Shown piece by piece: positions 4,817 through 42,494 of a stretch of 64,000 bases of DNA. The DNA lies in assembly GCA_035221665.1 (NCBI GenBank), contig CM069158.1:23746001-23810000 (forward strand). Direction: 5' to 3'. Below the pieces are notes generated by a model that was not told where the DNA came from, made no database searches, and saw only the letters and a list, made by a program, of their open reading frames with translations. The position numbers and the translations under genes are program-made. The first letter of the stretch is position 1. Each line of letters starts with the position of its first letter. This DNA comes from Okamejei kenojei. Its lineage: Eukaryota.

Positions 4817-5330
4817 CTATACTATTACTAAAACTCTTTGTCTTGTTTGTGGCTGTCTGTGTGTATGTGTATGTGTATGTGTCAATTTCTATTTTCCTAT
4901 TTTCTTCCAAACGCTAGACCACAGCCTTTCCATTTTCACACATTCTATTCACATTTTCCCATCGAGGTGATAAACACCTTCCCGTCGCATTCCCACCTAT
5001 ATTTCCACACTTTTTAATCGTTTAAAGCTTTAAAAAAAATCCCCGAGTAACGTCACAATGCACTCGCAAGGCAGGACGGGACACTGCGGGAGGGAGCGCA
5101 TTCCAGCGCATGTGCGTGATGCCCGCTGCCCACGCCCAACACCTGGTGGCGAGGGTGGAGCTGTGGCCCTTGCTGGAGCCGAGCCTGGTGCTCGAGCTGG
5201 ATTGAGAGCCGAGCCCGGGCTGAAAAAAAATGCTGCCTCTGGAACCAAGTCAGGGCCGGGCCGAGTACGGGAATCAGGCTGAGTTCCAGGCCCTGGCGCT
5301 GCTCTACGACCTGGGTAGATCCTGAGTTTC
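4817..5330 (+). mobile_element. Possible non-autonomous Helitron-like element
   Basis: Starts CTATACTATTACTAAAA followed by a (GT)-rich microsatellite, resembling the 5' ends of fish Helitron-type elements; no CTRR 3' end identified. Confidence 0.3.
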
Positions 5331-5810
5331 AGTCATTATTACTGGGATTGCATTTTCACCTTCTTCAAATAGAAAACTGCACAGTTTCTGTTGTTCTCAT
5401 TCTGACAAACATGACAAACCAGAAGAAAAACAGATTTATAATTGTTTTTGGCACATCATGCCTTTAGCACAGGAAGAACATCCTTCACAAAACTTTGATT
5501 TCTCCACACTTAAGCTATTTCTGTACTTAAAACTGCTGCACACCAAAAACAAATATCTCAATATAATTTTAGTAGTGACTAGACTAAACTACATTTTGTA
5601 AATGTAATGTAAATGTAATGTAGGCTAATGTAAATAATCATAACTGCAGCTAAGATTTAGCTTAATTTACAATTTGACAATCCAAATGTACCTTGTGTTT
5701 AACCACGACCAAAGCAGAATACTGGTACATTTCTTTGAATACTATGACAGCAAATCAAATCATTTCTAGCATCTTAATCCCCTTCCACTTAATTCCCTCT
5801 TTCCAGATTT

Positions 5811-20864: not shown

Positions 20865-21830
20865 TTAAGATACAGAACTTAAAATAGTATCTGCAAAAGT
20901 TGCAGATGTGGTCACAGGTTTGTTATAAAACCGTTGAAAAGTTGACTCATTGGACCAACCCGCCGTAGCAAGGATGTGGTCCATGGGAACTTCCATCATC
21001 CTCCCCGCTAATGTAGACGCAGCCCTGGTAGAATGAGATTTAAAAACGTCAGTGTCTACCCCTGCTGCACCTAACACCATCCTGAGCCACCTTGAAATGG
21101 TCTGTACAGTTACCCTGTAGTGAGGGCATTTAAGACTGATTAAAAGGCCCATTTCCATACCCCTGAGATTTTTAGTGACCTCTAGGTAATGACGAAGGTG
21201 GGTTGTTATGCAAAGGCGTCTGTCTAATGGATAGGCCTGGAACTCCATTTTAGGCCAGATGACCCAAGTCTGTTATGTTTAAGTAACTCATTTATATAAA
21301 AGGTCACCTTATTTGGAGTTGATACCATGGTATTCCATTTTAATTTATGCAGGGTCTGGACCCGCTGTGCAGTAACAAGTGCCATCAGCATCACTACCTT
21401 ATAGGTGAGCTTGGTCAATGAGAGTGACCCAATCCATAAGCAGGGACAAGACCAGTCCGATATCCCAGGTTTGAGAATATCGAGGCCTAGGAGGATTAGA
21501 GTTAAAAATACCCCTCATAAGTTTAGACACCAGGGGGTGGGATCCTACTCCAAGGTGTTCTAACCCAAGCCCGAGGTAGGATGATAAAGCACTTCTAGCA
21601 CAGTTGATGGCACGATAACTGAGGCCCTCATCGTAATGAAGGCTAGCCAGGAATTCCAGTACGTCTATAATGGTGGCAGAGTTGTATGTGGTGCCAGTCC
21701 TGGAACAAAATACTTCCCATTTTTTAACATAGGTGAGGTATTGTCTCCTGGTGGACTCCCTGCACGATGCCGTGATGATGTTCATGGTCCTGTCCGTCAA
21801 CCCGAACTCCAGGAGAGGTCTATTCAGAAC
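20865..21830 (-). pseudogene. Tyrosine recombinase of DIRS B (frameshifted)
   Basis: ORFs 21399-21836, 21224-21418 (LVTAQRVQ, catalytic R) and 20865-21248 (HSTR, AGWS, FQRFY). Confidence 0.92.
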
Positions 21831-23721
21831 CTGCAAGCCAATAGGTTCATGTAATCATGGCATGGATGATTCTCTCCAGTCACGGGATGTACCAGGAGAT
21901 TCGGGCGTTTGGGAATCGGGAGACCCAAATGGGAACCACAGGGAACCATAGGCCAATCGGGTATGATCAGAATTCCTGATGCGGAGTCTAATTGAATTTT
22001 CCACAATACCCGACTGATGAGGCAGAAAGGGGGAAATGCATAGAAAAACAAATCCCCCCAATGTAGCGATAAAGCGTCCATCGCTACTGCCCCAGAGTCT
22101 GGTTCCCATGCAACATATTTTGGTATCTGATGGTTAAGTCTAGATGCAAAAAAGTCGATATCTGGCGTTCCATACCGAGCTATAATGTCGGTAAATACCT
22201 GGTGGTTCAATATCCATTCGGTGTTGTCATTGAATATGCATGACCTGGTGTCCGCCATTGTGTTGAGCTTACCTGGAAGGTAGGTAGCTGATATCCAAAT
22301 GTTTCTTTCAATGCACCAGTGCCAGATTTAATTTGCCAATTCATCACAAGATATCAACTTGATACCACCCATATGATTAATATATGCCACCACTGTGGTA
22401 TTATCTATTTGTAGGCAAACATGCAGATGGTGCATATCTGAACAGTAGGCCTGAAGTCCATGAAATGCTCCCAACATTTCTAAATCATTAATACCTTGTG
22501 TCCGAAGTAAGGTAGATTTGTGTGTATTCCATCAACCACCAGTATCGGTAGCTCCTCAGCCGTGAGCGCAGGCGTCAGTTTGTAACACAACCAAAGGGTT
22601 TGTGATTCTGATGGGATTAAAGCAATGTCAAATATTGCTAATCCACCATCCAATTCGATTTTTGCTTTGGCCGGTAGCTGCATAGGCCTGTCAAAATGAC
22701 CAGCGTGAGATTTGAGTGCTGCAATTTTGGCTCTTTGTAAATTTTGGTAATGTTACGGTCCATATTGTGTGGCTGCAAAGGTAGCCACAAGTTTCCCGAT
22801 TACCCCGGCAGCGTGCCAAATGGTTGGTTTACAGGTGCATAAAAGGCTATTGCATGCCTCTATTAAGTCTGTCGCTTTGCTTTTTGGCAAGGTGACAGTC
22901 ATGTGAACAGAATCGATCGTGAACCCCAGATAATCCATTATTACAGAAGGCATTAACTTGGATTTGTCTGGATGGATGATAAATCCCAGTTTTTGAAATA
23001 GAAGTTTGGTGGCTGTAACAGACAATTTAGCCAGTTTCAAGGTTTTCCCCACAATTAGGATTTCATCAAGATATGCCATGACAATGTGCCTTTGTTTCCG
23101 AAGAAACGTCAATGCTGGTTTCAGTATTTTGGTAAATAGCCAGGGGGCTGTTGTTAATCCATTAGGCAGCGCTTTATACTGCCATAGCTGCCCCATCCAG
23201 ATAAATTTCAAATATCTGTGGTGATCTTCATGTATTGGTACTGAATAGTATGCATATTTTAGGTCAATGCAGGCCATGAAGTACCCTTTGGAAACTAGTT
23301 GTTTAGCAGTTACAAACGTTTCCATTTTGAAGTGGGTATATTGCACAAAAGTATTCAGTTGTGTCAAGTCAATGGTAATGCGGCATCCACCATCTTTTTT
23401 GGTTTTAGTGAAGATGTTTGATACAAACTCAAGAGGTTCATGTTTAGTTTTCTCTATTACTCCCTTAGAATACAATCTAAGTAGTTCTGCATGTCCTTCC
23501 ACTTTCTCTTTTTGTGAAAGCACAAATTTCCGGCTAGGTACATGTTGAACTGGTAGGAGGAGTTTGTCAATTAATTCAATTTTGTATCCCTGAATACTGT
23601 GCAATATAAAGAGATCAGAAGTTATAGAACTCCATGCATCCCGAAACAAGTGTAATCTACTCCCTATTTGTGAAGTTACACATGTGATATTCCCAAGGCA
23701 ACCAGACCCACCTACCTCCAT
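21824..23721 (-). pseudogene. pol of DIRS B: RT, RNase H, Dam-like methyltransferase domain
   Basis: IDLKYAY, LPNGL and YLDE (YLDD variant) in RT; DFFASRLNHQ...YAFPPF in MT; stops and frameshifts in RH. Confidence 0.92.
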
Positions 23722-23723
23722 TG

Positions 23724-25186
23724 TTACTGGTGGCGCTGGGTCGGCTTCTTCCGTCCTTGGCTCTTGGGACATGGAGGCGTTGTGGTGCGGGGTTGCCGCA
23801 TTTTCCAGGAAGGCTGCTCTGGGACATGGCCTAAAAAAGACCTTTGTGTGGGTTGTGCTGCCTTCGGTGTTTCACCCGCTGTCCTGTCGCTATGGTAGTG
23901 GGGCCTGTTGGTGGTTGCATAGGGGTACTGCCACCGGCTGACTGTTGACCTGATGGTAGTCGGTGCCTTGATCATGCCCACCGCTTTTGCTTCTTCATCA
24001 AGGTCTTTGACCTGTTTAGGCAGGTTGTCCCCGAACAGCAGAGTAGGCGGCGGTGTGCTGCTAGTTTTATACAATCCTGCGAATTTTGGGTTAAGTGTAG
24101 GCCGGATCGCACTTTTTCTGAAGCAGTTAATTTCGAATTGGACATTGCAGAGTAGTGCTAAAGCGTCCTGTTGCTCATCCGTCATGTCGTTGCCATCCAT
24201 TGATCTGGCAAATGCAGTAATTCCCGCAGCTAGCGGTTTTAATATCTTCTGCATATTGACCTCTTGGGCCCTGATGCTGGGACTGATGTTCCCCCAGATG
24301 GTGTGTTGACTGCCGGTACATTGAGAGAGACACAGTTCTCAGGAGCAAGGTATTTGGCCGTGGTATCATTGAAACATAGAAACATAGAAATTAGGTGCAG
24401 GAGCAGGCCATTCGGCCCTTCGAGCCTGCACCGCCATTCAATATGATCATGGCTGATCATCCAACTCAGTATCCTGTACCTGCCTTCTCTCCTTACCCCC
24501 TGATCCCTTCAGCCACAAGGGCCACATCCAACTCCCTCTTAAATATGGCCAACGAACTGGCCTCAACTACCTTCTGTGGCAGAGAATTCCACAGATTCAC
24601 CACTCTCTGTGTGAAAAATTGATGCAGCTGATGCGTTGTTAGATAATTAATGCTCGCTGCCAGCTGCAGTTGTAACGACTGTCCCTTCTGGGATGGTATT
24701 GCGAATTTTGATACCATTCCCAGGAGCTCGTCTTCCTGCACCCCTAGCACGTTGGGTTCTTCAGCCAACCCCTCTTCAGAGTCAGCCCAGACCTGACTCC
24801 TAATGCTCCCCTGCGAAGAGGGTGAGACATTTGTAAAGGATACTGCCGTGGGTCTGCGAAGAGACCCACGGTGACCAGACTCCTGCTGGAGTAGGTCGCG
24901 ATGGAGCAGCTGCTCCACCATCCGCTCCATGTGGGATAATCGACCGACGTCACTACCCGCGAACGGCAAGTCGTCAGGCCCAGACTCAGCCGAGTCAACG
25001 GGGCTGCCCGACTTCCGGGTGGCTTTGCCGCCAGTCCGCAGTGTTCCTGCGGGCTGTAGCGGCAGGAAGTCGGGGGCTGCCGCATGCTCAACGGCCAGCT
25101 CAGGCGTTGTCGGCCGCTGTTTACTGCCCGCGGTCCTCCGCAGTCTGTCGGGAAGCGGCCCGTTTCTTTCCTCGAGTTTTTTCCAT
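23724..25186 (-). pseudogene. gag-like ORF1 of DIRS B, disrupted by a CR1 insertion
   Basis: ORFs 23724-24254 and 24493-25218 are homologous to D ORF 37169-38272; probable start MEKTRGKKR at 25186. Confidence 0.85.
24371..24618 (-). mobile_element. CR1 3'-end fragment inserted in DIRS B gag
   Basis: FFTQRVVNLWNSLPQKVVEA (CR1 ORF2 end) and a (TTTCTATG)n tail; gag homology resumes on both sides. Confidence 0.92.
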
Positions 25187-25487
25187 CGCTCGAGGTAGTG
25201 GGTACTCTGTGAATACAAACAGGAAAGCAGAGTGCCCTAACCACTCTAGGTTAGCGGTACTTACCTGAGGGTTTCCTTTTGTAAACTTGCCGGTAATATG
25301 TCGTGCATGTGTGCTGGCGGGGTCTTCACGAAGTCACTCACGTGACTCCGAAGTAAAATGTTGAGTTAGAATGTACTTCTCTCACTCCAATCAGGCATCA
25401 AGGTCTCCACTGCCCTGTTGGAACCTGCTTAGTTCCATACTGTGTCATTCTTCAATTTCTTCCTGGTTGGAATGAATTTCTGGATAC

Positions 25488-25689
25488 TGTAGAGAAGGTA
25501 CACAGACACCTTAAGGTCTTCACTACTTTATTAATCATACATCATATATAGCCCTAGCTGTACGTGGTCTGTCACGATCACTAGAGAGAGAGCTGGGGCG
25601 TGTGGGTTACAATTATACTAGCTGGTGGGGGGGTGGTTAGCATGGACATCGTCACTATCAATTAAAGGTGTATACACATATCATCTACA
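25488..25689 (-). repeat. 3' LTR of gypsy element
   Basis: Near-identical direct repeat of 29947-30157; TGTAGA...TCTACA ends. Confidence 0.97.
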
Positions 25690-25699
25690 TCCTTCCTCT
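25690..25699 (-). promoter_or_regulatory. Polypurine tract of gypsy element
   Basis: AGAGGAAGGA immediately before the 3' LTR. Confidence 0.9.
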
Positions 25700-25781
25700 A
25701 CCAAAACAAACAGTGAGTGACAGGGCGACCACGTCTCATGCGCTAGGGTAAATGCAAACAGTAAAGTACGGGAATACAGAA

Positions 25782-28700
25782 TCACACGTAATCGCCGTAA
25801 CGGACCGGCGGCCTGACCAGGCGACCAGACCCGGTCCGCACCTCGCCATCACCTCCTTCCCCGACGGGAACAAGTGGGGACGCCGGGGCATGGTGGGGGC
25901 TACGGACAGGAGAACCCCTTGGCGACGAAGGCATCGGGGGGGACGGCGAAGAGAAGGGCGAGGAAGCCGGAGAAAGCGGGACCGCAGCCGGGAGGCGGAC
26001 AGGAGGAGGACGAAGGGGAGTTGGCCCCAGAGGAACGGGCAAAGCACTGGGCCGCGACAGTGGCAGCGAGGGGGCATACAGAGCCGCCAGGGGAGGGAGA
26101 GGCTCGTTCACGAGCCGGAGATGCTGGCGGGACCGGCGGTACACCCTTCCGTCGTGGTTGACAAGGTACGAACGAGGGGAACCGGCAGAACCGACGACCA
26201 CGACCAGCTTGGAACGGCCAGAAGTGGACCTCATACGGACGACTTGGCCGGGGAGAAGAGGGCGGAGGACACGGCAGGACCTGTCGTGGGAACGCTTCTG
26301 TATACTGTGTTTTTGGGCAATGCGTTTCCGGACCAAGGCAGGTTTAAAGACGGAGGGGGACAGGGACTGCTGAGACACCGGGACCGTGGGCCTCGTGACT
26401 CGGGGCATGAGTCGCTGAGCCGGGGAGCCCAGGGCATGGTCGCGGGAGATGTTGCGGAGGTTCAGCAGGGCCAGGTAGATGTCGGAGCGGGATAGGCGGC
26501 AACGTTCCAACAATCCTTTAGCACTGCAGACCGCACGTTCGGCCAGTCCGTTGCTCTGCAGGTATTCCGGGCTGCTAGTGTAATAACGAAAGTTCCATCA
26601 TTCGGCAAAAGCGCGGAATTCGGCACTGGTGAACTGGCTGCCGTTGTCCGACTGCGGGCTGGCCGGTGACCCGAAGGTGGCAAAGTGGCGGCGCAACTTC
26701 TCGATGACCGCGGAGGAAGAGAGGGAGTGGAGCTGGTCAACTTCAAACCAGCTGGAGTAAGAGTCGACAAGCACCAGGAAGTGCTTTCCGTGCCACTCGA
26801 AGATGTCGGTTGCTAGCGCAGACCATGGCAGGTCAGCAGCTGGCTGCTGCAGGAGCGGTTGCTGCTGTTGCTGTGGTGCGAGGCTGTTGCAGGTAGGGCA
26901 CGCGGAGACCCTATCCCGGAAGTAGCGAGGCATGTCAGGCCAGAAAAATTGGCTCTGAGCGATGGAAAGGGTCGCTTCAGCCGCGGGATGGCCACGATGA
27001 GCGGTTTCGAAGTATTGTTCTCATAGTGCTGCGGGCACCACCACCTTGTGCCCCTTCACAATCACACCATCACGCAGCACCAACTTGTCACGAACCAAGA
27101 AGTAAGGCACCGCTGCGGCCGGCAGGGAAGAACGGCGGTCTGGCCAGCCCTCTTGATGATCGCGGCCAGTTGCTGTAGCGAAGCGTCAGCCGCCGTGTGC
27201 TTGGTCAGGGACTTCAACTGACTGGAGGGCACAAAGTCAACGTTTAGGACTATCAGATCGGACGTCTCGTATGGATGTCGGGTTGTGGATGAGAGAGGCG
27301 CCCGAGACAGCGTGTCAGCAACAACCATGTCCTTGCCCTTGCGATAAACCACTGTGAAAGTGAAGCGTTGTAGCTGGAGCATCATGCGCTGGAGCCGGGA
27401 GGAGGCCATGTGTATTGGCTTGTTGAGGATGGTGACCAGAGGCTGGTGGTCCGTCTCGACAGTGAAGCAGTTGCCCAGGATATAGTCTTTGAATTTGGAG
27501 CAGGCAAAGACAACAGCCAGCAGCTCTTTCTCAATCTGGGCATAGTGTTGTTCAGCGGTCGTCATTGTGCGGGATGCGTAGGACACAGGCAGTTGCACCC
27601 CATCATGGATCTGCAGGCAGGCGGCCCCGAGGCCAAACTTAGATGCATCACATGTGAGGACGATGGGGCGCTGGAGGGCAAAGTACTTCAGCGTTGGCAT
27701 GCTGATCAGCTTAAATATGAGGGTGTCAAATGCTTGCTGGTGTTGCGGGAACCAGGCCCAGGCAGTGTCCTTTTTCACCAGATCCCGCAGAGGGGCACTC
27801 AGTTCACTCATGTCGGGGATGAACTTTCCCAGGTAGTTGACCATGCCCAAGAAGCGCTGTAAGCCAGGCACGTCTGCAGGTGCAGGCATCTCGGATATTG
27901 CGGTCGTCTTCTGCGGGTCGGGCTTCAGCCCCGATGCAGTGAAGACATGCCCCACGTAGGTGACCTCAGGGACCCAGAATCGGCACTTCTTCGGCTTGAG
28001 CTTCAGGTTGACCTCCCGGGCACGCTGCAGCACCTGGCGAAGGTGGTGGTCGTGCTCAGCGACATTCTTCCCATAAACCAGGATGTCGTCGACAATGATG
28101 GCACACGGAAGTCCAGCAAACAGTTGTTCCATGGTCCTTTGGAAGAGTTGATCCCAAACGGCATGCGGAGGAAGCGATACCTGCCGAAGGGCGTGCTGAA
28201 GGTCGTCAGGTGCGAGGATCGCTCGTCTAGAGGTATCTGCCAGAACGAACTCTTGGCATCAAGAACCGAGAACACGGTGGCAGGGCCGACCTGTGCAGCA
28301 ACATCCTCCACCGTCCGCATGGGATAGTGTGGGCGCCTGATGGCCAAGTTCAAGTCCTTAGGGTTGATGCAGATCCGTATTTCGCTCTTGTCTTTCTTCG
28401 CAGCGACAACCATAGTAGAAACCCACCGGGTGGAGTCCGTTACTGGCTTCAGGATGCCCGTGGCCACCATCTCGTGAAGAGCAGACTCGACCTTGCCCCT
28501 CATGGCAAAGGACACACGGTGCGGGGGACGGATGAATGGCGTGATGTCGGGATTGAGGGCAATCCTGTAGCTGCAGGGCAACTTCCCCAGCTTCGAGTCA
28601 AACCGGTCTGGGAATTCGGCCAGCGGGTTCAGGGGTGCCTCTACCAGGTGGACATCACTGTGGAAGCTCACCAATCCGAGATCCTGGCAGGCCTCCACGC

Positions 28701-28940
28701 CGAGCAGGGGGTCACATTTACCATCTAGCCGGAAGAAAGAGAGGGGCCGAGAGGTCTTCAGCACCTTGCAGTGGAGAGTGGCCCTCCCCACAGGAACAAG
28801 TACGCCACCCCCATAGGCACGCAAAACAGCACTGTGGAAACGGGCTCATTATTTCTTATCTTCCTGAACAGGCTTGTTGACATAACATTAGCAGCAGCCC
28901 CCGTATCCACCTTAGCAGAGAAGGCCATGCCATTCACCGT
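25782..28940 (-). pseudogene. gypsy pol (protease, RT, RNase H, integrase), several frameshifts
   Basis: KVDTGA (PR); LDAKSSFWQ, RMPFG, IVDD (RT); CDAS...YAQIEKE...TDHQPL (RH); CPTC, LVDSYS, SDNG.QF (IN). Confidence 0.93.
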
Positions 28941-29867
28941 GACTCGGACGGTCGGGTCCGTTATCAGAGCAGCTGCACCTCGCAAGGAAAACACATTCAG
29001 CGCGCTCTGAGAAGAGTCAGGGTCAGACGGGGGGAGATCATTGTGCTGGAGATGGGAACCAGATGCTGTATCATCACGTGTCAGGTAGCGAGACGGTTTC
29101 TGCTGTGGCTGTACAGGGTTCTCACGGGAACGGCATGCTGCCGAGAAGTGGTTGGGCTTGTTGCAGAAATTACAGGTTTTCCCCAACGCCGGGCACACAT
29201 TAGAACGGTGTGAAACAAAGTTACAATTTGGACATCGTTGAGGCGGTCTGAAGCCCTGCAGTGGTCTTACCCTCTGTCGCCGGGGAGCATTGTACTGGCG
29301 ACCAGCGAGACTGGCTGCGTGAACCACAGGGTCAGGTACAGCAGAGGAGACAGCCTCAGCTAAACGAGAGGCATGCAACGCCTCATCGAATGTCAGATCA
29401 GGCTTACGCAGCAGCTCAGTGTGCAGCTTATCATCCCATAGACCAAAGACCAAGATGTCACGGGTCAAAGTATCAGGGGTCAGAACATGCAGGTCACATC
29501 GGCGAGCCAGTTGGCGCAGCGCGGCCACGAAATTGTCAATAGATTCCCCAGGGTTTTGGCGTCTGGAGAACAGTTTGAAACGCTCTAAGATGTGGTTAGT
29601 GGGAAGGTCACACATCGCCGTAAATTTAGCAAGCAGACATACCGGGACCTGGATACTCTCACCCTGTCCATAGATGAACGCCTCCGAACGCTCGAGCGCT
29701 TCGGGACCAGCTAGATTAAGCAGCAGGGAAGCCTTGACAGTGGGGGCCACAGCAGGGTGGGCGATGGTAACATAATGCTCAAAGTCACGTCGGAACACAC
29801 TCCAGCGATGAACCATGTCTGCATCAAAGACTAGGATGTCAGGTTTACGACAGGCAGAAGCCATCAC
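28758..29867 (-). CDS. gypsy Gag with two CCHC-type zinc knuckles, running into the protease
   Basis: RRQNPGESID.F..ALR.LA..C; CPNCNFVSHRSNVC and CNFCNKPNHFSAAC. Confidence 0.9.
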   Translation of the reverse strand: MMASACRKPDILVFDADMVHRWSVFRRDFEHYVTIAHPAVAPTVKASLLLNLAGPEALERSEAFIYGQGESIQVPVCLLAKFTAMCDLPTNHILERFKLFSRRQNPGESIDNFVAALRQLARRCDLHVLTPDTLTRDILVFGLWDDKLHTELLRKPDLTFDEALHASRLAEAVSSAVPDPVVHAASLAGRQYNAPRRQRVRPLQGFRPPQRCPNCNFVSHRSNVCPALGKTCNFCNKPNHFSAACRSRENPVQPQQKPSRYLTRDDTASGSHLQHNDLPPSDPDSSQSALNVFSLRGAAALITDPTVRVTVNGMAFSAKVDTGAAANVMSTSLFRKIRNNEPVSTVLFCVPMGVAYLFLWGGPLSTARC

Positions 29868-29932
29868 GGCACAGGGAGGGGGTACTGGGATTAAGAAAAT
29901 AAAACGCGATAGACTGGAGATGCAGAATGAAG

Positions 29933-29946
29933 CACTTCTGACGCCA
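29933..29946 (-). promoter_or_regulatory. Primer binding site (tRNA-Leu type)
   Basis: TGGCGTCAGAAGTG directly after the 5' LTR; one mismatch to the complement of the tRNA-Leu(CAA) 3' end (CACTTCTGACACCA). Confidence 0.85.
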
Positions 29947-30157
29947 TGTAGAGAAGGTACACAGACACCTTAAGGTCTTCACTACTTTTTTAATCATACA
30001 TCATATATAGCCCTAGCTGTACGTGGTCTGTCACGATCACTAGAGAGCTAGGGGCATGTGGGTTACAATTATACTAACCGGTGGGGGGGGGGGGGGGGGG
30101 GTGGTTAGCATGGACATCGTCACTATCAATTAACGGTGTATACACATATCATCTACA
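29947..30157 (-). repeat. 5' LTR of gypsy element
   Basis: Direct repeat of 25488-25689, differing mainly in poly-G and (GA) tract lengths. Confidence 0.97.
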
Positions 30158-31351
30158 GATACCCGTCAGAACCTGCTGCATCCTTGATGCACCTTCTTTA
30201 TAAGAAATGCAAGCTCAGTTTAAAAGTTTAAACAGTCAAACTGGACACTCATCACATTGCAACCTTGACAACAGCATGAATCTGCAATTAAAATAAAGGA
30301 TTTTTTTTAATGGAGCTTGCCTCATCAAAACCTCAAGGTATTCAGATAAATATTTTCAATATAAGTACAATAGTGGTGGCGGTGATGGACTCAGTGAATG
30401 GAACATTAATTAAATGCTTCTAACCTATAGCAATGGAGGGCATTCTGATGTTCTGATGATTTATACTGTTCTGATGGTTTATTGACCAAATAGAAACACT
30501 CCAATATGGTCTGATGTTCCTTGCCATCATCAATAAGGAGACCTTTAACTGATGGTCTTTTTTATACTTTTCTATCTCCAAATCAAATATGACCCCAGTT
30601 CTCAAGGAATATTTATGATGTGTGCAGCACATCAGATTAGGGCTACCAGGTTTACACCATTAGAATATCAAGTACCTTAAAGCATACCAATCTATCAAGA
30701 CTACTTCTCCATGACCAGTAATACTTATGTCTACTTTCAGTCTTCTTAATTTCTGTACGCAAGACTCTTTGTGGAACGTTGTTTGTTTTATTTAAGTTTG
30801 TTTTTCTTTAATTATTTTAATTGTATGAGGATGAATGCTTTTGAATGTCTCCAAATGTCATACGCATTTTTTTTTAACAACCGTGTTCTGGGTGTGCCTT
30901 GTTTTGGTGCAGGACATCATAGGTTAGGGTGGAGCCTTCATCCAGTAATGTGCTCAGCAGGTTTGCATGAAGTACGAATGACACTGCACTAGACTGATTG
31001 AACCTAGAAACATAGACCAGGAAGAGGCACTTCAGCCCACAAAGTCCCAACTGAACATGATGCCAGGTTAATCTCCTCGATCTGCACGTGATCCATATCC
31101 TTCCATTCTTTTCATATCCATGTGAAACTGTCCACAATTTCTGAACCTTCAGATCTATGTTTTTGTTTTGCTGTCATTGCGAATCAACAAAGTGTGTTAA
31201 AATAATTCTTGCTTCGTTTGCATGAGAACAATTGATTCGGAAGATTACATAGTCTTGTAGTGCTTTTTTTGTAGGCAAAAAAATGTTGCTGCACATATAA
31301 CAATCCGCACAATGTTATTGACAGCTGTACATTAAAGTCGTTTTTAGAGGT

Positions 31352-34300
31352 TGTTAAGGTTCATTTCACTTCAGACAAAACGTAATAAAATTAGTAATCA
31401 AGTAGTAAAATCTTTATTTCACCAGGCGGGTGTGGCAGTAAACTCTTACAGTATGTAATATACAGACTATAGGTTCACTGTATCCCCACAAAAAGAGGTA
31501 ATGTTCAATCAGATATATTTATACCCCAATAATCAACGATTCAGCAATACTTTATCTTACAGTGCATTGCACAGCCTCCTGTCTGTTAAGATTGCCAGGT
31601 TCTTCCGAGAGAGGAAAGGTTAGCCCAGATATGGTCATGCTGAAGAGGCTATTTTTCTGCAGATCAAGCATTTGTTTTTTTTACCTTATTGACACACATT
31701 TTACTTAGGAGTCACGTGAGTGATTCTGTGAAGAAGGCCCGCCATTGCACATGCGCGTCATTACGTTAGACGCATGGCGCAGCGATGGGCTGGAGAGCGC
31801 AGCTCCACCAGCGGTAAGTTAAAAACTCACAGGTAAGTTTCCTCCAGCAGCGGTCTATACAGGGAAGACCTGTACTACATGGGGGCCCATACCAGCAGTG
31901 CCAGGTCAAGGGCTGCATGATACCTCCCTCATGCATGAGCAGGGAGAGCCAGGGCAGTATGATACTGACCCTGAAGTTGGTGGTATAGCGGAGGAGCATA
32001 CCCAAAAGCACACAAGCTTAGCTCCAGGTGTGCCGGATGTGGCATGCAAATTCGCCATACCGGCAGGAACTGGTAAGGAAATGGAAGAAAATCTGGCCAG
32101 AAACATCAATTACATGACCTCTCACCAGCTCCAAGAATCAACTATGGATGAAACATCCAAACGATACGAAACGCCTGTAAATTGTGCATCACTCAGAGTG
32201 CCCAAAGTGAACCAGGCCATCTGAGGGCAAATGGGTGCAACCATGCGATTGCATGAATTAAGGCTGCAAAAAGTCTTAAAATTAATCGGAGCAGGCATAA
32301 CGGCATTTGGACGGTCAGTCGAAGGGGCACCACTATCAGACCCACAGCAGGATATGTTGGCTCTGCTGTGTAACGCCCACTTTGAGATTAACTGCCTGAG
32401 GAAAAATGCCATCAAGCCAACTCTAAATCCATAATTTGCAGCACTGTGCAGATCCTCCAACATACAGCCACCAAACTTGTTGTTTGGTGAAGATCTGGCA
32501 AAGCAAGTCAAGGACTTAGATGACGAGGCAAAGATGATCGGCCTTATCAAATCGCATTCCACAAGCACGATGCTGCCTCGTCGACCATACCCCTTCAGAC
32601 GGGTCACGCGCGGGGCAAGGACCAAGCTGGGCTTTTCCATCACTATGCCATTGGCATGCACCAATGCACATCCCCAACAGAATTAGGAGGCAAAAGAATC
32701 CAGCAACCATGGAGGTACGAGCAGCTGGACCTGTCCAGGACATATCCTCTAGAGATCAGTCACCAGTAGGGGGTAGATTGCAATTGTTCTACAGTGAATG
32801 GTGCTGCATAACATCAGATCAGTTTATACTGGACAGTATCCAGGGGTTTCGAATTGAGTTTATTTTTGATTTACATCCACCCATACAACATACAACCAAG
32901 TCAGGTATTGGTGTTTTCAAAACCAGAAACTCTACAGGTAAATAATGAAATTGAAACATTATTCAAAAAAGGGGTAATTGAAAGTACAGCTCATCAGCCT
33001 CAGCAGTTTGTGTCTAATATATTCCCCAAGCAAAAGAAGGATGGTGGGTGTTGAGTCATTCTTGACCTAACCCAACTGAACTCCTATGTCCAGTATAAAC
33101 ACTTTAAAATGGAAACTTTCAGTACTGCTAACAACTGGTTTCCAAAGGATGTTATATGGCAAGTATAGATCTGAAAGATGCATATTATTCAGTACCAATT
33201 CATTACAAATACCGTAGATACTTGAAATTTAGTTGGATGAGACAGCTGTGGCAATTTAAAACTTTGCCCAATGGGTTAACCTCAGCCCCTGGGTTATTTA
33301 CAAAATTGTTGAAACCAGTATTAGGACTACTCCGGGCTCAGAATCACATTGTGATGGCATACTTGGATGATGTTCTAATCATAGGCAACACTCAGGAGGC
33401 AGCTGAAATTTCTGTTTCAGTTACCAAACATATGTTCGAGAGGTTGGGCTTCTTCATCCATCCAACTAAATCCAAATTGATGTGATCTAGAATCATTGAC
33501 TATTTGCAGCATTCTGATAGATGAACAGCAACCCTCCATCCGGTGAGTGGCTAGTGTAATTGGCAAATTAGTGGTGGCTTTACCTGGAGTGCAATTTGGG
33601 CCTCTACACTATCTGAATGAGCAACGAGCTAAGGAACAGGCACTCAAAAAACATGCAGGTCATTTTCGATAGACCGATGCAGTTGCCAGTCGAAGCTATC
33701 GCCGAGTTGCAATGGTGGATAACAAATATCTCACGTTGCTCTAGTAACATTCTGAGTAAACAACCTTCAGTTGTTTTGCAAACTGATGTGAGTGCTTTGG
33801 GATGGGGAGCCAGTGATACAAATTCTAGCTGCGGCGGCAGATGGAGTATGCAAGAGGCATTAATCCCACAGATGAATGGGATAAACTATTTAGAATTGTT
33901 GGGGGCATTCTATGGCCCAAAAGCGTACTGTTCAACAATGCATGATTTACATGTTCAGCTCCAGATTGACAATACCACAGCTGTTGTATATATTAATCAC
34001 ATGGGTGGATAATCTGGCTAACCTCATCTGGCACAGGTGTATTACTAGGAACATCTGGGTCTCAGCAATCTACCTACCAGGTAGAGATAACGTGGTGGCA
34101 TCAGGTCACGTAAGTTTAATGACAACACAGATTGGATGCTGAATCCAGAAGTTTTTAAAAAGATTGTCACCCAGTATGGATTGCCAGACATAGATCTGTT
34201 TGCATCCAGGCTAAATCACCAGTTACCTAAATACGTCTCAAGGGAACCGGATCCAGGGGCAGTAGCGATGGATGCATTCTCGCTACATTGGGGAGGTATG

Positions 34301-35728
34301 TTATTTTATGCCTTTCCCCCATTCTGCCTTATCAGTCAATGTCTCACGAAAATTGAGGAGGACTCCGCTTCAGGCGTTTTGGTAGTCCCCGACTGGCCCA
34401 CACAGCCATGGTTCCCATTGGTTCTGAGACTGATGACACAGCCATTCATGGTTATCCCAAAATGCAGCAACTTGTTGGTTCACCCTGTGATAGGAGAGAG
34501 TCACCCTTTACATGATCATATTAATCTGCTGATTTGCAGATTCTGACCAGACCGTTCCAGGGGCTCGGACTATCGAGTCGGACTGTGGATGTGATTACTG
34601 CGGCCTGGAGGGATAGTACTAAAAAACAATACGTATCTCATATTAAGAAATGGGAAATGTTCTGCTTACAGTCAAATATATCATATCACACTGCAGGCAT
34701 ACCTGATGTATTGGAGTTCCTTGCTACATTACATTTTGACGAGCAATTGAGTTATAGTGCCATTAATAGTGCTAGGAGTGCATTGTCCTCCTATTTATGG
34801 CAGGGGTCGAGACAACATCCATTGGATCTCATCCATTGCAGCGAGGGTACTAGACGTCCCTTTAGACCAAATCTTCGGGGCCGCAGGATGGTCCAGTGAA
34901 GGGAATTTTCAACGATTCTATGACAAACAGGTTCTATGACAAACCTGCCCTCACGACGGAAGGATTTGGGCATGCTAATTTGGGTTCTGTTTTGTATTTT
35001 CCCCCTGGGAGAGAGGGGTTGTTACTGTTCCTTTTTGTTATTAAAACATTAATTTGTATCATTCAAACAGTGTTCAATACATTATTTGTTTATCCTGTGT
35101 TAACCGAAGCAGTATGTCGTATGGGACTGGATCTACGGCATGAAATCACAGAGCTTCGAAATCTTCACGGAATCACTCACGTGACTCCGAAGTAAAATAG
35201 TAAGATTAAATGAGAACTTACCAGTTTGAAGTTTGATCTTTATTTTATGAGGAGTTACGGTGAGCGATTACGTGCCCTCCACTCCCTCATAATCGCAAAG
35301 ATCATCTGGTAGTTCTAGTCTTCTGAGTCTTACTATATTACTTTGACTGTGGTTACTGTGATTTCACGCCGCTGTTTTGAAGATTGATGCGCATGCGCAC
35401 TGGCGGGCCTTCTTCACGTAATCGCACACCGTAACTCCTCATAAAATAAAGATCAAACTTCAAACTGGTAAGTTCTCGTTTAATCATACTATTATAATCT
35501 TATAGAGTAAAGAGTACGCCAGGTGTCTGAACATTCTCCTGATATTTATATCATAAAGGGAAACATTCATGAAGCTGTGATGTTGGCTCGCTAGTGTTTT
35601 GGAAGAATGGTGAAAACATCTTTGTTAGCCTTGCTAGTGTAACAGGAGAAAGATGAAAGCCTTTCTTTATTGCTTCTAATTCTACAGCTGAATCCATTTT
35701 GTAACTTTTAAACCTTTAAACTTTCTCA
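31352..35728 (-). repeat. ERV 3' LTR, split by DIRS C (pieces 31352-31700 and 35491-35728)
   Basis: Joined pieces align with 44413-44974; on the minus strand it starts TGAGAAAG, with TATAAA ~31518-31523 and AATAAA 31413-31418. Confidence 0.9.
31698..35493 (+). mobile_element. DIRS1-like retrotransposon copy C (internal deletions in gag, RT/RH and YR)
   Basis: Left end ATTTTACTTAGGAGTCACGTGAG; RT (IDLKDAY, YLDD) 33156-33485; RH; MT 34136-34546; truncated YR; ICR 35163-35273; right ITR ~35389-35493. Confidence 0.95.
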
Positions 35729-35739
35729 TTCCTTCCTCT
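35729..35739 (-). promoter_or_regulatory. ERV polypurine tract
   Basis: AGAGGAAGGAA immediately before TGAGAAAG of the 3' LTR. Confidence 0.85.
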
Positions 35740-35769
35740 AGTTATGATAACATTCACAATTCTCGGTAG

Positions 35770-36045
35770 GTACATAATGGTCGCAAGCAGTTAACAATAT
35801 AAATCAGAGCGATAATTAATAAAAAGATAGAGCCATAGTATTCCATGCAGTATTCCAGAGTCCATCAAACTAACTGAATGGCCAGCAGCTCTCATTTCCT
35901 TCATTGTATTGGCATAAGGTTGGCATGTCACAGATTTTCTCAATATCTTGGGAAATGTGGGTAGCAAGGTCAGTGATATTAGAGGATTCATCAGGGATCT
36001 AGGCACAACGCTCATCTTATTATAATACAGGTGCCTCTTTGTTGA
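35770..36045 (-). pseudogene. Retroviral env TM subunit remnant
   Basis: Reverse strand, with a frameshift, reads QRGTCIII/DERCA*IPDESSNITDLATHISQDIEKI (decayed CX6CC-YIPD motif), then FDGLW and the hydrophobic LLIIALIYIV anchor. Confidence 0.8.
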
Positions 36046-36518
36046 TCTTTATGATCAATACTTATTTTATAGGAAGAAAGTTTTTTAATATACAATAGTT
36101 GTAAAACAGTGAGCACAATTACGTACAAAGATTATCAAGAATTTTTGCAGTTTGACAATGACAATAACCTGGTCGAAGACTTTTGTCAAATTCATATTTG
36201 TCAGATTAAAAATGTAAATAGCATACCTTAGGGGTAAAATCAGAATGGAGCTGTCAACTTTCTTATACAGTGGCTTGCAAAAGTATTCATACCCCTTGAA
36301 CTTTTCCACATTTTGTCACGTTACAACCACAAATGTAAATGTATTTTATTGGGATTTTACTTCGGAGTCACGTGAGTGACTTCGTGAAGACCCCGCCAAC
36401 ACGCATGCGCGGCATATCGTCGCGCGCATTTGCATCGGCAGGCTGGGGGGGGGAGTGCGCTCTCTCCTCGGGCTCCTTCATAAAGGCCAGTAGGTAAGTA
36501 TTACTTTTATCCTACAGG

Positions 36519-38272
36519 ATGGACAAGGGCAAGAGAAAGGCTCTGTCGAGAAGTCGAGCTTCGACCAGCCAACGGCCCTTGTCTCCGGAGCTGCAAGCAA
36601 CATCAGCAGCTTCGAGGCGTGTGGGAGCAGGAATGCGGAAGTCGGGTGCTCCCTCTGATTCAGGGGCCGATTCACCTGAATGGTTTACCGCTCCGGAGCT
36701 GGATGCATCGGATCCAGACTTCGAGCCCCCTTCCCCCAAGAAAAGAGGGGGGAAACAGGTACGTGACAAGGGGTCTCGCTTTTTACAAGCAACCCCTCCC
36801 CGAACTCCAGAAGACCCGAGGGGGCTGGGTCGGGGGACAGCCGCACGACAGGGGAGCCCTGCAAAGTGCAAAAACGTACCGCAGCCAGGCAATATCACTG
36901 CTGCGTCATGTAGGCCTGCTGGAGCAGATACCGCCGACAACACACCCCGTCAGGCTGCGGTCAAGGGCGGAGGTGGCAGCAGGAAGCGGTCGGTCAGCTC
37001 AGCTCTGGGAGCGGCCGACCATGCGCCTCCACGCCAAAAGATGGGCATGTGTGGAGGTAAGCCTGCACGGACTCCGGGGAGGCAGGTTCCGGGGGCCGGC
37101 ACCGATTCAACTCACCTGCCTTCTTATCAGACAGGTGGGCCGCCACAGTCTGGGAGAAGTCAGAGTCCGTGCGGGAGTCGTATGATCCTACTTGGGCTGT
37201 AGGTCACGACGACCTGCCATTGGACCCTAGACAGCACCCTAAGGGGGTGTGTTCCGATGGTGGAAGCCCCAGTGAATTTGCAGGGCCTGGGGAAGTCGGC
37301 TTGTCCGCTGCAGATAGCAGGGACGGTCGCATAGAGAGGTTGGAGCTCTTAGTGGAGCAACTCCTCCAGCGGGACCGGGAACGAGAAGAACGGGACTCGC
37401 GGGCATCTACCAGCCGAGCGAGGACTCCACTCAGCATCTCATCGTCTCCAGCAGGAAGCATGAGGGATTTCCCAGCTGCTGTGTTAGAAGACGACCCGGG
37501 GCAGCCAGTAACCGCTGAGCCAGAGCATGAGGAGGATATGCTGGAAGTGGTGAGTAAGTTTGCCGCTACCACCCAGACAGGTGAACCTCTGCACCACAAA
37601 TTGGCGGGCACCATTGATTACCTGACTACGCACCAACTCCAGAGTCAGGTTCTCAATGATACCTTGGAGAAAATAAAACCGTCCGAAAACTGCATCAACC
37701 TCAGTGTTCCCTTGGTTAACGCCCAGATCTGGGGACACTTGAATACGGCCACCAGGATGCAGGATGTCCGCCTCCAGCGTATATTAAAAGTTCTCTCCAC
37801 GGGCATAACGGCGTTTGCTAGGACCCTGGACGGGGATAATGTGTCGAGCGGTCAGCAAGACGCACTGGCACTCCTATGCAACGCCCAATATGAAATAAAC
37901 TGCCTGCGTAAGAGCTCCATAAAGCCCACACTCAACCCCAAATTCGCGGGGTTGTGCCGACCATCAACCGCTCCACCGCCGCATCAGTTGTTTGGAGACT
38001 TATCCAAACAGGTGAAGGAACTGGATGAGGAGGCCAAAACAGCTGGCCTCATGAAGCCTCCACCGACCAGACCTCACCGGCAACAGCCTAATTCATCTTG
38101 GAGAACACGGCTGCCGGAAAGGGCACAGAGATCCTACCCACCTCCATCCAAACAAGTGCAACAACCTTTTTTAGGGCAAGGCCAGCAACGGCCTGCATGG
38201 AAAATGCGGCCGCCGACTCGTCAACCTCCACAACGCCCACTCAAAACACCATATGTACGGAACCGCCGTTAA
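36519..38272 (+). CDS. DIRS D gag, predicted spliced: join(36519-37056,37131-38272), 559 aa
   Basis: A GT-AG 74-nt intron joins ORF 36519-37202 in frame to ORF 37169-38272 with no stop; N- and C-terminal parts are both homologous to B gag. Confidence 0.7.
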
Positions 38273-38274
38273 CC

Positions 38275-40207
38275 TTGGAGGTAAGGGGGTCTGGTTCTTC
38301 TCACGCCGTAGCATCCCCTCCTGCACGAATAGGTGGGCGATTGCGGGCTTTCTTGGACATTTGGAAAACTGTCACCACGGATGAGTTTATTTTACAAAGT
38401 GTTCAAGGATATGTTATAGAATTTATTGAAGGTATAAATCCCCCTACTCAGCATTCACCTCGTAGAAAATTTACTCTATCTCAAAAAGAGGTGGAGGCAG
38501 GACAAGCTGAAATTATACGGTTAGCAGAAAAAGGGGTAATTGGCAAAACCAAGCATGAACCAATTGAGTTTGTGTCTAACATCTTCACTAGGATTAAAAA
38601 AGATGGGGGATGTCGGATAATAATAGACTTAACTGAATTGAACAATTTTGTACAATACACCCATTTCAAAATGGATACGTTTGAAACAGCTAAGCAGATG
38701 CTTTACCCAGGGTACTTTATGGCATGCATCGATTTGAAAGATGCATACTATACGGTACCCATTGATAAGGCTTATAGGAAATTTTTGAAGTTTGTCTGGA
38801 AGGGTCAGTTATGGGAATATAAGGCATTGCCCAATGGAATCACCACAGCTCCTAGGCTGTTTATCAAATTGGTAAAACCTATATTGGCTCTTCTCCGACA
38901 ACAAAATTATATAGTAATGGCATATTTAGATGATATCCTTATAGTGGGTCCGACCCTCCAATTGGCGATTCAAGGAGTGGCTGCAACCAAGGCTCTGTTT
39001 GAGAAGCTGGGATTCGTAATCCATCCAGACAAATCAAAATTGCACCCGGTACGGGTTATGGATTATTTGAGGTTCACACTAGACACCAATTTAATGAAGA
39101 TTACCATCCCAACTAATAAAGCTACTGCTATTATAGAAGAGTGCCACAATCTTGCTTGCGCCAGGGTACCGACTATTCGGCAAACAGCAAAAGTTATGGG
39201 CAAATTGGTAGCTGCATTCCCAGCTGCACGATTCGGACCGCTACACTACCGAAATTTACAAAGATCAAAAATCACAGCATTAAAAACAAATGCTGGTCAC
39301 TTTGATCGGCCAATTTGGCTACCATCAGAAGCTAGAAATGAGCTACAATGGTGTGTTGACAATATTAGAGAATGTCATAGACCTATCATAGTGGGAAACC
39401 CTGATGTTGTGTTACAAACTGACGCAAGCGCACAAGGCTGGGGAGCAACTGATACGATGTCCAGTTGTGGTGGCAGATGGAACTCTCATGAGTCTACATT
39501 CCTGGAGTCACATGGGATAAATTATATAGAAATGCTGGGAGCATTTCATGGACTGCAGGCTTACTGTACTAATTCACAGGATTTACATGTCCGCCTTCAA
39601 ATAGATAATACTACAGTGGTGGCTTACATCAATCATATGGGTGGTATCAGGTCGCTATCTTGTGATGAATTGGCTAATACAATTTGGCACTGGTGCATTG
39701 AAAGAAACATTTGGATTACTGCGACCTATTTGCCTGGGAAGCTTAATACAGTGGCGGACACCAGGTCACGAGTCTTTAATGACAACATCGAGTGGATGTT
39801 GAATCCCCAAATTATTAGAGATATTATAGCTCATTTTGGGACACCAGATATTGACCTATTTGCGTCCAGGTTGAACCATCAGATACCAACATATGTGTCA
39901 TGGGAACCAGACCCTGGGGCAATAGCAATGGATGCGTTTTCGATCCATTGGGGGAAATGGTTTTGCTACGCATTTCCCCCATTCTGCCTCATCAGTCGGG
40001 TATTGCAGAAAATTAAACTAGACTCTGCAACTGGTATATTGATCATTCCCGACTGGCCTACACAACCATGGTAACCGATGGTTGAAAAATTTTAAAAACA
40101 GCCATGGATGGCGATTGGGAAACATCCCAAATTGATTACTCACCCTATTACGGGGATCAGTCATCCTTGCCATGGTCATTTAAACTTGTTGGCTTGCAGG
40201 TTCTGAA
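38275..40207 (+). CDS. DIRS D pol (RT-RNase H-MT); premature stop at 40072-40074
   Basis: ORF 38098-40074: IDLKDAY, YLDD, LQTDAS.QGWG, IDNTT, DLFASRLNHQ, YAFPPF; homology continues to LLACRF* at ~40207. Confidence 0.93.
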
Positions 40208-42494
40208 AAGACCGCTCATCCAGGCAGGCATCTCGTCAAGAGCCATAAACCTTATTGCTGCATCGTGCCGGGAATCAACCAAAGAAACAATACCCCACTC
40301 AAATCAGAAAGTGGGAGGTTTTCTGTGCCCGGAACAACAAGTCTTCCAACTCGTGCTGTTGATGGCACTGTTGGAAGACTTTTTGCAAAGAAGAATGGGC
40401 AAACATATCAGTCTCTAGATGTGCAAAGCTGGTAGAGACATACCCCAAAAGACTTGCAGCTGTAATTGCAGCGAAAGATGGTTCTACAAAGTATTGACTC
40501 AGGGAGGCAGAATACTTTTTCAGGCCACACTTTTCAGTTTTTTATTTGTAATAATAATAATTATGCACCACTTTATGTTGGTCTATCACATACAATCCCA
40601 ATAATATACATTTACGTTTGTGGTTGTAACGTGACAAAATGTGGAAAAGTTCAAGGGGTATGAATACTTTTGGAAGCCACTGTATATAGTAATATTTAGA
40701 ATTTATATGTTTCAGGCTGCTAGCATTAACTCTTGTACAAATTCCCCCATTGAATTGCTTGGAAAACAGATCAAGATTTGGCAAGCCCCCGTGAATAAAT
40801 ATTATCCCTACTGGGGCTTTGAAAGCTTCCCATTGAATTGATGCATGCCATTTGTCCATGACTGTGGGACCTGAAGATTAGTTTGTAACTTGTTAAAGAG
40901 ATTAACATCCATAAGTTCAAATGTTACAAGATACCATGAACTAATAGCATTATTTCAGCAGGCATTCAGGAGTTAGATTGGGAAATGGTTGCAGTAGGGT
41001 GTGGGCTGGGTTGTGGGGAGAGAATTAAATTACCATTCTAACAACCTCAAGGGAACAAAATCTCTGCTGAGAGTATAAATACAGTGATGGGATATTATTG
41101 TTGCTCTGCAAAGTAAAATATTGAAATAAAAAGCACTTTTATAAAGAACATATTAGACAAACTCAATATCAGATGCAAGGCTTTTGTTTTCTTGCAGCCT
41201 TTCCACAAAATTAAACATTAACTTGCCCATCTTATTAACTTAATTTTTGCCTTTTAATCATTGTTTCCCTGCACATTCCCATTCTTATTAAAACCCAGCC
41301 AAATTTTAAAAAGTGAATTGGAGGATGATGAATTATGCAGAATTATTGCAGGAATGGAGGCATACATGTGTCTGATTGTAATTTGGTTTGAATCTGTCCT
41401 TGAGCTCATAAAGAGTTATGGCACAAACCCAACATCCTAATCAGATAAGGAAGCTTGATTACCTTACAGCAGCGAGTTCACTGCTAACACTTCTATCATG
41501 GTAGCCTTCGCCATTACAGCATGTAAGCAGGCCGGCATGTTATTTTACTACTGCTGGTAAAGCTGCGGAATAATCGGATACCGGTCTTTATGCAGGGATA
41601 TGGGGAAAAAGGCTGAACATAGGTCAATTACTGTAAATTACTGTCATCTATATCGGCTTCTGTCAGTATAGATGACAGAATAATATTGGTATCAGGTACT
41701 AAAGGACTATTTTTAATAGCTCTCAGATCTTAGACAAAACACCATTCATTACGTCTTCCCACTTTCGGGATTGGCATAATACGAGTATTACACAGACTTT
41801 GCATTTTCAGTCATAGTGCTTGTTCCAATAAAGACAATCATGTAAATCATAAAGAACATAGCTATCCCTTCTTCAGCCTCCGGGGCCAGTCAATATTGTT
41901 TTAAACATGGCAAGGCAGCACCTTTTTTTGTTCAGTTTATGTTCAGGGGCTGAATACACCCATCCCACATGATTCTTATGCTTTGCCCATAGTTTGTAGG
42001 GTACTTGGACCAGAGCCACAGTAGGCAGATCCTCAGTAGGCAGCTGCTACTTTTCATAGTGTCCCATTCCTTTCTGACCCACGTGATCTTTCCTTCTGTG
42101 ACATTGGCAACTTTAAAACATGAATTGTCAGTTTGTTCTTCAGTCATTTTATCAGTTTTCCTATTTCTTCGCTGTTGCTGGAGGTCTAGTAGCAACGATT
42201 AAGTATGACTCAGAGGTGTCTCCCATCTCAAATCGATCCCTTTAGTTTTATTCCTAATCCCAGAACCCCAAAGAACAAATAAGGGGTCACTGTTAACTGT
42301 TCAAGTTTCTTCAACCGGGGGAGACTTTTTCCTATTATCCGGGATTAGAGAGGCACGTCTATAATTCAGTGCAATGCGTTTGCTTATGTTCATGGCTGGT
42401 TTTAACAAGATACTGTAAATACTGGCCCTTTAAAAAAAAAAAAAATTCTGTATGGCTTCCTTTTACCTCCAGTCTTGCAGGAGGACATCCAAGT

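Follow-up and report, generated by a model that had tools for sequence, protein, structure and literature searches.

Three DIRS1-like elements at the locus

The window, meaning the whole stretch of DNA analysed here, covers 64,000 nt of Okamejei kenojei contig CM069158.1 (forward-strand positions 23,746,001 to 23,810,000) in a genome of 2.76 Gb. It holds three decayed copies of DIRS1-like retrotransposons, referred to as B, C and D. By Pfam, the pol of D is a reverse transcriptase (RT; PF00078, E 1.5e-17), and a tyrosine recombinase (YR) is recognised in B (PF13495) and in the related copy L094 (PF00589 and PF13495). Inverted repeats lie at the 3' ends of B and C, and the left-end sequence recurs in an internal complementary region. 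RNase H and methyltransferase were not called by Pfam on the D pol; some full-length relatives (42-51% identity) carry PF17917, PF05869 or PF12237. The best-scoring named protein relative comes from a skate (P0082, 65% identity).

D lies on the plus strand. Its left terminus and leader (36355..36493) match the left end of B and are followed by a 24-nt leader segment running from GTAAGT to YAG (36494..36517). Next comes gag (ORF1, 36519..38272), which is homologous to ORF1 of distant DIRS elements and matched no Pfam family; in the window copy, a frame change in the 5' half breaks this ORF. The heptamer T_TTT_TTA stands in gag phase at 38167..38173, and from there a dual-coding gag/pol overlap, continued by a pol-frame linker, extends to an E-V donor (38167..38280). 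A predicted pol intron of 1,919 nt (38281..40199; donor GAG|GTAAGG at 38281, acceptor TTGCAG ending at 40199) contains the coding sequence for RT and, putatively, for RNase H and methyltransferase. The YR frame, compared with the YR of B and L094, starts behind it in phase 0 with the donor (40200..40340), and D is truncated beyond this start.

On the minus strand, B carries an intron-like leader segment of 58 nt with donor, CTAAC box, pyrimidine tract and CAG (25207..25264), and a gag ATG at 25186, 20 nt downstream of the CAG ending at 25207. Its T_TTT_TTA heptamer (23832..23838) is followed by a predicted pol intron of 1,885 nt (21831..23715; donor GAG|GTAGGT at 23715, acceptor TTGCAG ending at 21831) and by the N-terminal part of YR (21399..21830; PF13495, E 4e-6). 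C, on the plus strand, has tandem leader donors (31814..31838), a pair shared by most families of this genome, and a predicted pol intron of 1,825 nt (32715..34539).

Other repeats surround the three copies. Between B and C lies a minus-strand LTR element (25488-30047). It has gag, protease/RT and integrase-like frames, and its terminal repeats, 101 nt long, are 99% identical. A very high-copy repeat fragment, probably a LINE 3' end, interrupts the B gag (24370-24620). D is flanked by a 96-nt inverted repeat of 96% identity (36264-36359, 40591-40686) and adjoined by a 236-nt segment that is repeated at 44737. These flanking repeats suggest a local rearrangement around the truncated D copy.

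A probable slip site in the gag/pol overlap

Shortly before pol, B and D carry TTTTTTAG|G, ending at 38174 in D and at 23831 in B, just where the first-pass annotation had placed it. The distance to the supposed pol start is 101 nt in D (TTG at 38275) and 110 nt in B (ATG at 23721). TTTTTTAGG occurs at only two sites of the window, one in B and one in D, and the motifs recur at the same positions across many families of the genome. In the gag frame, TTTTTTAG reads T_TTT_TTA. The pol frame, at -1, is open through TTTTTTA in both elements, and the gag stop follows about 100 nt beyond the heptamer.

We scored 40 of the 4,000-5,500 candidates per element and took the best 30 copies each of D, B and C, of which 30, 29 and 29 could be located. 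The heptamer is exact in 30/30 best D copies and in 24/29 best B copies, and the pol frame stays open from the heptamer to the donor in 30/30 and 27/29, respectively. A pattern allowing any Phe-Leu codons gave 2,331 genomic matches, and among the first 100 listed, 97 read TTT TTA GG, with variable neighbouring codons. The base preceding TTTTTAGG is T in 2,217 matches and A, C or G in 94. The amino acid of the codon that ends in this base nevertheless varies between Pro, Ser and Thr (CCT, TCT, AGT, ACT). The first-pass annotation had read TTTTTTAG as a splice acceptor hidden in the FLG codons of gag, and its expectation of no synonymous variation in these codons holds. Fixed codons are equally expected at a slip site, however, and cannot separate the two readings.

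Families with gag fused to pol behave differently. C and its family have no gag stop and run from gag in frame into pol; 19 of the 29 best copies are open over 70 codons, and none of the 29 has TTTTTTA within 330 nt of the pol start. Among 60 further loci, taken from 96 recombinase matches, we found additional fused families with single ORFs of 1,051 codons (L117) and 1,090 codons (L094). In this genome, the loss of the heptamer thus coincides with the in-frame fusion of gag and pol.

Distant relatives separate the two readings. Aligning 43 pol proteins led to 94 distant loci (35-51% identity), presumably host DNA in metagenomes; 14 were left out for too little sequence upstream of RT or a missing N-terminal part of RT. 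The remaining 80 loci form 51 clusters. In 40 of them pol overlaps gag at -1, in 3 the two are fused, and 8 clusters appear broken (6 of these with a heptamer nearby). An in-phase slippery heptamer is present in 39 of the 40 overlaps: T_TTT_TTA in 24, T_TTT_TTG in 7, A_AAA_AAC in 5, and T_TTT_TTC, T_TTT_TTT and G_GGT_TTT in 1 each. No TTTTTTA is out of phase (24/24 in gag phase). The base after the 24 T_TTT_TTA heptamers is G in 17 and T in 7, so that the AG of the proposed acceptor exists in only 17 of the 40 overlaps. The conserved unit is the in-phase 7-mer, not the AG. Because the heptamer is kept while the AG is absent in 23/40, we take TTTTTTAG as a likely slip site rather than an acceptor.

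The heptamers are concentrated in the overlap, with 40 in 1,794 overlap codons and 5 in 12,923 other gag codons; since the motif list was set after inspection of the data and the clusters are related, a p value for this enrichment would overstate it. A_AAA_AAC and G_GGU_UUU are among the most shift-prone heptamers (Atkins et al., 2016, PMC5009743), and T_TTT_TTG is not among the shift motifs named in the available text of that review. In 8 of 39 distant loci, a pol-frame stop lies at most 6 nt 5' of the heptamer. The 50 nt 3' of the heptamer fold with z < -2 against shuffles in 13/39 distant loci, whereas three flanking windows do so in 2, 1 and 2 of 39 (p = 0.001 for the comparison with the upstream one). 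A 70-nt test that included the families of this genome gave p = 0.075. In these families alone, we found no stimulatory fold behind the heptamer (32 sequences with z between -1.44 and +0.60; 0/10 below -2). A pseudoknot scan of the region 3' of the heptamer in 49 sequences gave no consistent signal, with 24/49 above the shuffle mean.

The heptamer is absent from all three distant fused clusters, which form a starred branch of their own, apart from the fused families of this genome (midpoint root). If the -1 overlap is ancestral, fusion would have arisen at least twice. Fourteen contigs in bacterial genome bins (L262-L275) hold DIRS-like pol, mostly in near-complete elements, and are probably contamination by a eukaryotic host. 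No relatives were found in viral contigs.

Judged by its conservation, the site called an acceptor before pol is a -1 frameshift site with high probability, and the conserved TTTTTTAG is likely an HIV-type slip site rather than a splice acceptor. A fixed codon pattern that ends in AG can pass for a splice acceptor.

The codon behind the gag stop

Behind the gag stop, B reads TAAcaATG and D reads TAAccTTG, in agreement with the first-pass annotation, which saw in this codon the start of pol. The codon is not conserved, and this role could not be upheld. Across the families of this genome, nine different codons (ATG, TTG, TTT, GTT, AGG, ACA, GCT, GCG or GTG) stand before E/Q-V, and the AG|GT at E/Q-V is kept across the same families. 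A pol-frame ATG at the gag stop occurs in only 4 of the 40 distant clusters.

Two observations, on the other hand, fit a separate pol start and speak against the frameshift model. ACCATGG, a strong start context, follows the gag stop in 29/29 best B copies and in most frameshift-type families here; in D, where the codon is TTG in 29/30, all of the 30 best copies have a pol-frame AUG as the first AUG that follows the AG. Reinitiation, or occasional use of the AG, may occur in this lineage.

This evidence bears on a mixed scheme, in which frameshifting yields Gag-Pol, and the ATG that lies two bases past the gag stop can also serve as a start for pol or YR, by termination-reinitiation or by leaky initiation. 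A spliced RNA would then give a free YR (ATG-GAG joined to YR). Such a scheme would account for the retention of TAACCATGGAG in most frameshift-type families of this genome, and after the splice the ATG would stand two codons before YR, in frame. It sits poorly with the families that have another codon at this place and with the 36 of 40 distant clusters that lack the ATG. The ATG is also retained in fused families (C, L093) without a preceding stop, where it may be a protein motif only. We regard the mixed scheme as tentative and rather unlikely, and keep frameshifting at the heptamer as the preferred route into the pol frame.

A probable splice that skips pol

The pol-frame linker behind the heptamer ends at a donor. 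For 39/43 distant clusters, the best donor in the stretch from the gag stop to RT has pol phase 0. The FPPF motif could be scored in 37 of the 42 distant loci that reach YR; the other 5 gave no match to it. The codon after FPPF is AGY in 27/37, and the YR frame is open from that AG in 27/27; where the codon is a serine codon, it is AGY rather than TCN in 27/28. Among the 10 loci without this AG, 5 have TTGCAG about 71 codons further on, in phase 0 and with YR closed upstream, 2 have neither acceptor, and 3 have YR open without that AG, so that 5/37 fit neither pattern. In this genome, TGY follows FPPF in 52/56, and the TTGCAG site takes its place. The position of the YR acceptor switches between lineages, and its phase is kept.

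The exact donor-acceptor junction is present in 13 genomic copies of a related family (control, 0). The 6 junction copies that we inspected keep gag and a stop-free 114-nt linker joined exactly to YR, with the internal complementary region 1.1 kb on and the heptamer intact in 4/6. The 13 copies probably stem from one lineage or event, since the 6 compared are 93-97% alike. With AGGT, the donor and acceptor have a 4-nt microhomology in common, so a deletion by template switching could have produced an identical join; about 6,700 pairs of this kind exist, this join among them. The same search found no joined junction in the large fused family. Comparing the metagenome loci with one another gave no spliced forms either, as expected for loci collected by their RT, a choice that keeps pol-less forms out of the set. 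These pol-less retrocopies keep gag and the heptamer region, and the leader intron is present in 3/3 found among the 13. Two sea-urchin proteins (XP_071483612.1 and XP_071502116.1), known as NCBI gene models, read through FFR and have the linker E joined to YR at the same residue, with RT absent. No further Gag-plus-YR protein was found among the other 147 new protein representatives. A third protein, XP_046546323.1 (P0174), joins Gag to YR without RT and was not counted, because its junction cannot be placed without DNA.

We notice that the pol-less lineage (L296-L301, L329, L330 and L332) comprises at least 13 copies that keep gag, YR and the internal complementary region. It is probably a non-autonomous DIRS family that originated from a spliced RNA and receives RT in trans.

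Ribosomes could instead enter YR by shifting -1 once more where pol ends, as proposed for Ngaro elements (Poulter and Butler, 2015, quoted in PMC13003380), the pol-less copies then being mere deletions. The relation of the frames allows it, with YR at -1 to pol in 41/42 distant loci. Such a shift leaves unexplained why YR opens at an AG with a pyrimidine tract, why the serine codon is AGY, why the acceptor moves between lineages with its phase kept, why a phase-0 donor is conserved behind gag, and why the exact junction is present in the genome. We consider this second shift improbable. The second splice to YR in the first-pass annotation is well supported by the conserved phase-0 sites and the exact genomic junction copies, and the splice that skips pol is probably real.

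Leader donors and the acceptor reading

The leader signals of the first-pass annotation are all correctly placed. In D, the donor AG|GTAAGT at 36494 and the TACAG ending at 36517 delimit a segment of 24 nt, which is followed by G-ATG (36518-36521). B (minus strand) has AG|GTAAGT at 25264 and CACAG ending at 25207, 58 nt in all, and C has GTAAGT at 31814 and 31833. GTAAGT alone occurs at chance frequency in the window (32 sites on both strands). Nearly every family of this genome has a leader donor, frequently a tandem pair, 110-135 nt into the element. In many of them a pyrimidine tract and YAG directly precede gag; several families lack the tract and YAG by the rule applied. Counted from the second donor, the YAG lies at 57-61 nt in five families including B, at 49 nt in L125 and at 37-39 nt in the L304 family. 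The leader scan also picked internal complementary regions as false leaders, and no overall count is given. In distant elements, leader donors are scattered and at about chance level (12/34), so their conservation is confined to this genome.

The leader splice signals look real, and their use is putative. The 24-nt segment of D, a length shared by 20/25 D-family leaders, is probably too short for splicing in cis, and the CTAAC box stands only about 13 nt after the leader donor, a close spacing for splicing in cis. We found no genomic copies without the B leader intron, and RNAs spliced in the leader may not be copied back. Contigs over 20350-40349 from four runs, two of them marked 'probably DNA', cover all repeats alike, and none of the 15 joints listed is at a predicted junction, a result that weighs neither for nor against splicing. 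The likeliest role of the leader donor, at about even odds, is to mark a short, often retained 5'-UTR intron before gag that is needed neither for pol nor for YR.

In the leaders of L286, L287, L283 and L094, ACTTACC, the complement of the second donor, lies within about 15 nt after the donor; other families have ACTAACC at this place and GGTTAG further on. Going by base complementarity, the leader could form hairpins here that hide the donor, and genomic RNA might in this way retain the leader segment. GTAAGT and its complement are also seen in the internal complementary region and the right terminus (20654-20675, 35193-35496 and other 3' ends). A hexamer that resembles a donor is thus not necessarily a splice site when it lies at a DIRS end. 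In the fused copy L094 (L094:1287-1500), a leader AUG is in frame through both donors into the 1,090-codon gag-pol ORF, a phase not conserved in sister subfamilies. The idea that a leader AUG is brought into frame with YR through the leader donor was rejected, as the phase differs between families (by eye).

The first-pass annotation combined these elements into a splicing programme. In it, the leader donor has a choice of acceptors, one before gag, one at FLG and, by way of the second splice, one at YR, and the ATG that follows the gag stop is the start of both pol and YR. The fixed FLG codons, the leader donors conserved here and the second splice survive from it; TTTTTTAG as an acceptor and the pol start codon do not. 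In its favour, donors are at the same place in nearly all families here, TTTTTTAG|G is nearly invariant, TAACCATGG is common, and in D the in-frame AUG comes first after the AG although the codon is TTG. The context of the supposed acceptor is poor: the T run has no pyrimidine tract on its 5' side, the pyrimidine fraction at -25 to -10 is 0.44 (0.58 and 0.77 for the two YR acceptors), and an extra AG lies within 25 nt in 34/37 sites, compared with 0/9 and 2/27 for the YR acceptors. Reading on from the supposed acceptor, the first AUG is outside the pol frame in 28/29 best B copies, and L289 and L294 have no pol-frame AUG between the AG and the donor. A pattern that covers the donors of B and D, rather than of all families, gave 17 hits, and none of the 8 inspected is a leader-to-FLG junction. 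Together with the distant overlaps, which keep the heptamer without the AG, rarely have the pol-frame ATG and show leader donors at about chance level, these results make the programme as a whole quite improbable, somewhat more so than a second shift into YR.

Transcriptional slippage, by which a base would be added or lost in the RNA at the T run, draws on six-T or six-A runs being the commonest motifs, and is very improbable given that polymerase slippage usually needs longer runs, that G_GGT_TTT lacks a long run, and that the strict gag phase, the fixed seventh base and the 3' folds fit the ribosome.

Proposed expression of DIRS1-like elements

Based on these findings, we propose that these DIRS1-like elements probably make three products: Gag, Gag-Pol by -1 frameshifting, and Gag-YR by frameshifting combined with the removal of a 1.9-kb pol intron. 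As the conservation of the site suggests, a minority of ribosomes would slip by -1 at the heptamer and enter the short linker. The donor at E/Q-V, just behind the gag stop, would be joined in phase 0 to the acceptor where YR opens; the junction is taken from genomic retrocopies, and its use in RNA is predicted. The unspliced RNA would yield Gag and Gag-Pol and also serve as the genome, and the spliced RNA would yield Gag and Gag-linker-YR. Families without the heptamer, with gag and pol in one frame, would make Gag-Pol and Gag-YR without a shift.

We lean slightly towards a broader proposal, that one plan is conserved across animals. An HIV-type -1 frameshift would set the ratio of Gag to enzyme, and the alternative splice behind it would choose between Gag-Pol and Gag-recombinase. 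The YR acceptor would lie in the FPPF-S codons of the methyltransferase or, where this AG is lost, at L-x-C-R 71 codons on. In some lineages, at least twice, in-frame fusion would have replaced the frameshift. In this genome, the choice between keeping an RNA as genome and using it as message may be governed by an added leader donor, together with the complementary or branch-like box close to it.

DIRS elements are abundant in many animal genomes, and the expression of their pol and recombinase is unexplained in the literature examined, as far as its accessible text goes. The model would explain it without a conserved start codon. It names exact sites, namely a slip heptamer, one donor and two alternative acceptors, and predicts two fusion proteins. 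The protein motifs FLG, E/Q-V, FPPF-S and L-x-C-R would be explained as RNA signals. The model would also correct the ORF annotation of DIRS and add a large natural set of frameshift sites.

Comparison with known systems

DIRS1-like elements are described with gag, pol (RT) and YR ORFs, inverted termini, an internal complementary region and overlapping frames, all shared by the elements here (Piednoel et al., 2011, PMC3266345; Malicki et al., 2020, PMC7192593; Gazolla et al., 2022, PMC9210276). These three papers, in the text available, give no mechanism of translation or splicing for DIRS. That text of PMC3266345 does not mention splicing, introns or slippery sites, and its annotation supplement could bear on the point; frameshifting is unmentioned in the corresponding text of PMC7192593, as are frameshifting, splicing and introns in that of PMC9210276. 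More widely, we found neither a slip site at gag/pol nor a splice that skips pol described for DIRS in the accessible portions of the literature, including PMC3266345, PMC7192593, PMC13003380, PMC3783388, PMC9210276, PMC6681497, PMC4157794 and PMC5009743; a prior mention is possible in the main DIRS reviews, which lie outside this scope. The combination of a frameshift with an alternative splice apparently has not been described before as a plan of DIRS expression.

In Ngaro elements, frameshifting from RT/RH has been proposed for YR (Poulter and Butler, 2015, quoted in PMC13003380). The order of elements is the same, and YR is likewise at -1 to pol. The Ngaro shift, however, is placed at pol/YR; the elements here have their slip site at gag/pol, and splicing is the predicted way into YR.

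U_UUU_UUA is the gag-pol shift site of HIV-1 (Atkins et al., 2016, PMC5009743), in a review whose available text does not mention DIRS. HIV-1 gag-pol and LTR retrotransposon sites share with the DIRS sites the identical heptamer, the X_XXY_YYZ phase and pol at -1. The DIRS elements differ from HIV-1 in that the shifted frame would feed two products, Pol or (after splicing) YR. They also differ in the stimulator, as no such fold was found in the DIRS families of this genome.

Spliced subgenomic mRNAs are used by retroviruses, by errantiviruses (env), by foamy viruses for pol and by copia for gag. As is proposed here, such systems keep the unspliced RNA as genome and express a 3' gene from a spliced RNA that leaves out pol. 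In contrast to foamy virus, the DIRS pol shows no acceptor of its own. In contrast to retroviruses, the DIRS donor lies behind gag, not in the leader, and the 3' gene would be fused to Gag through the frameshift.
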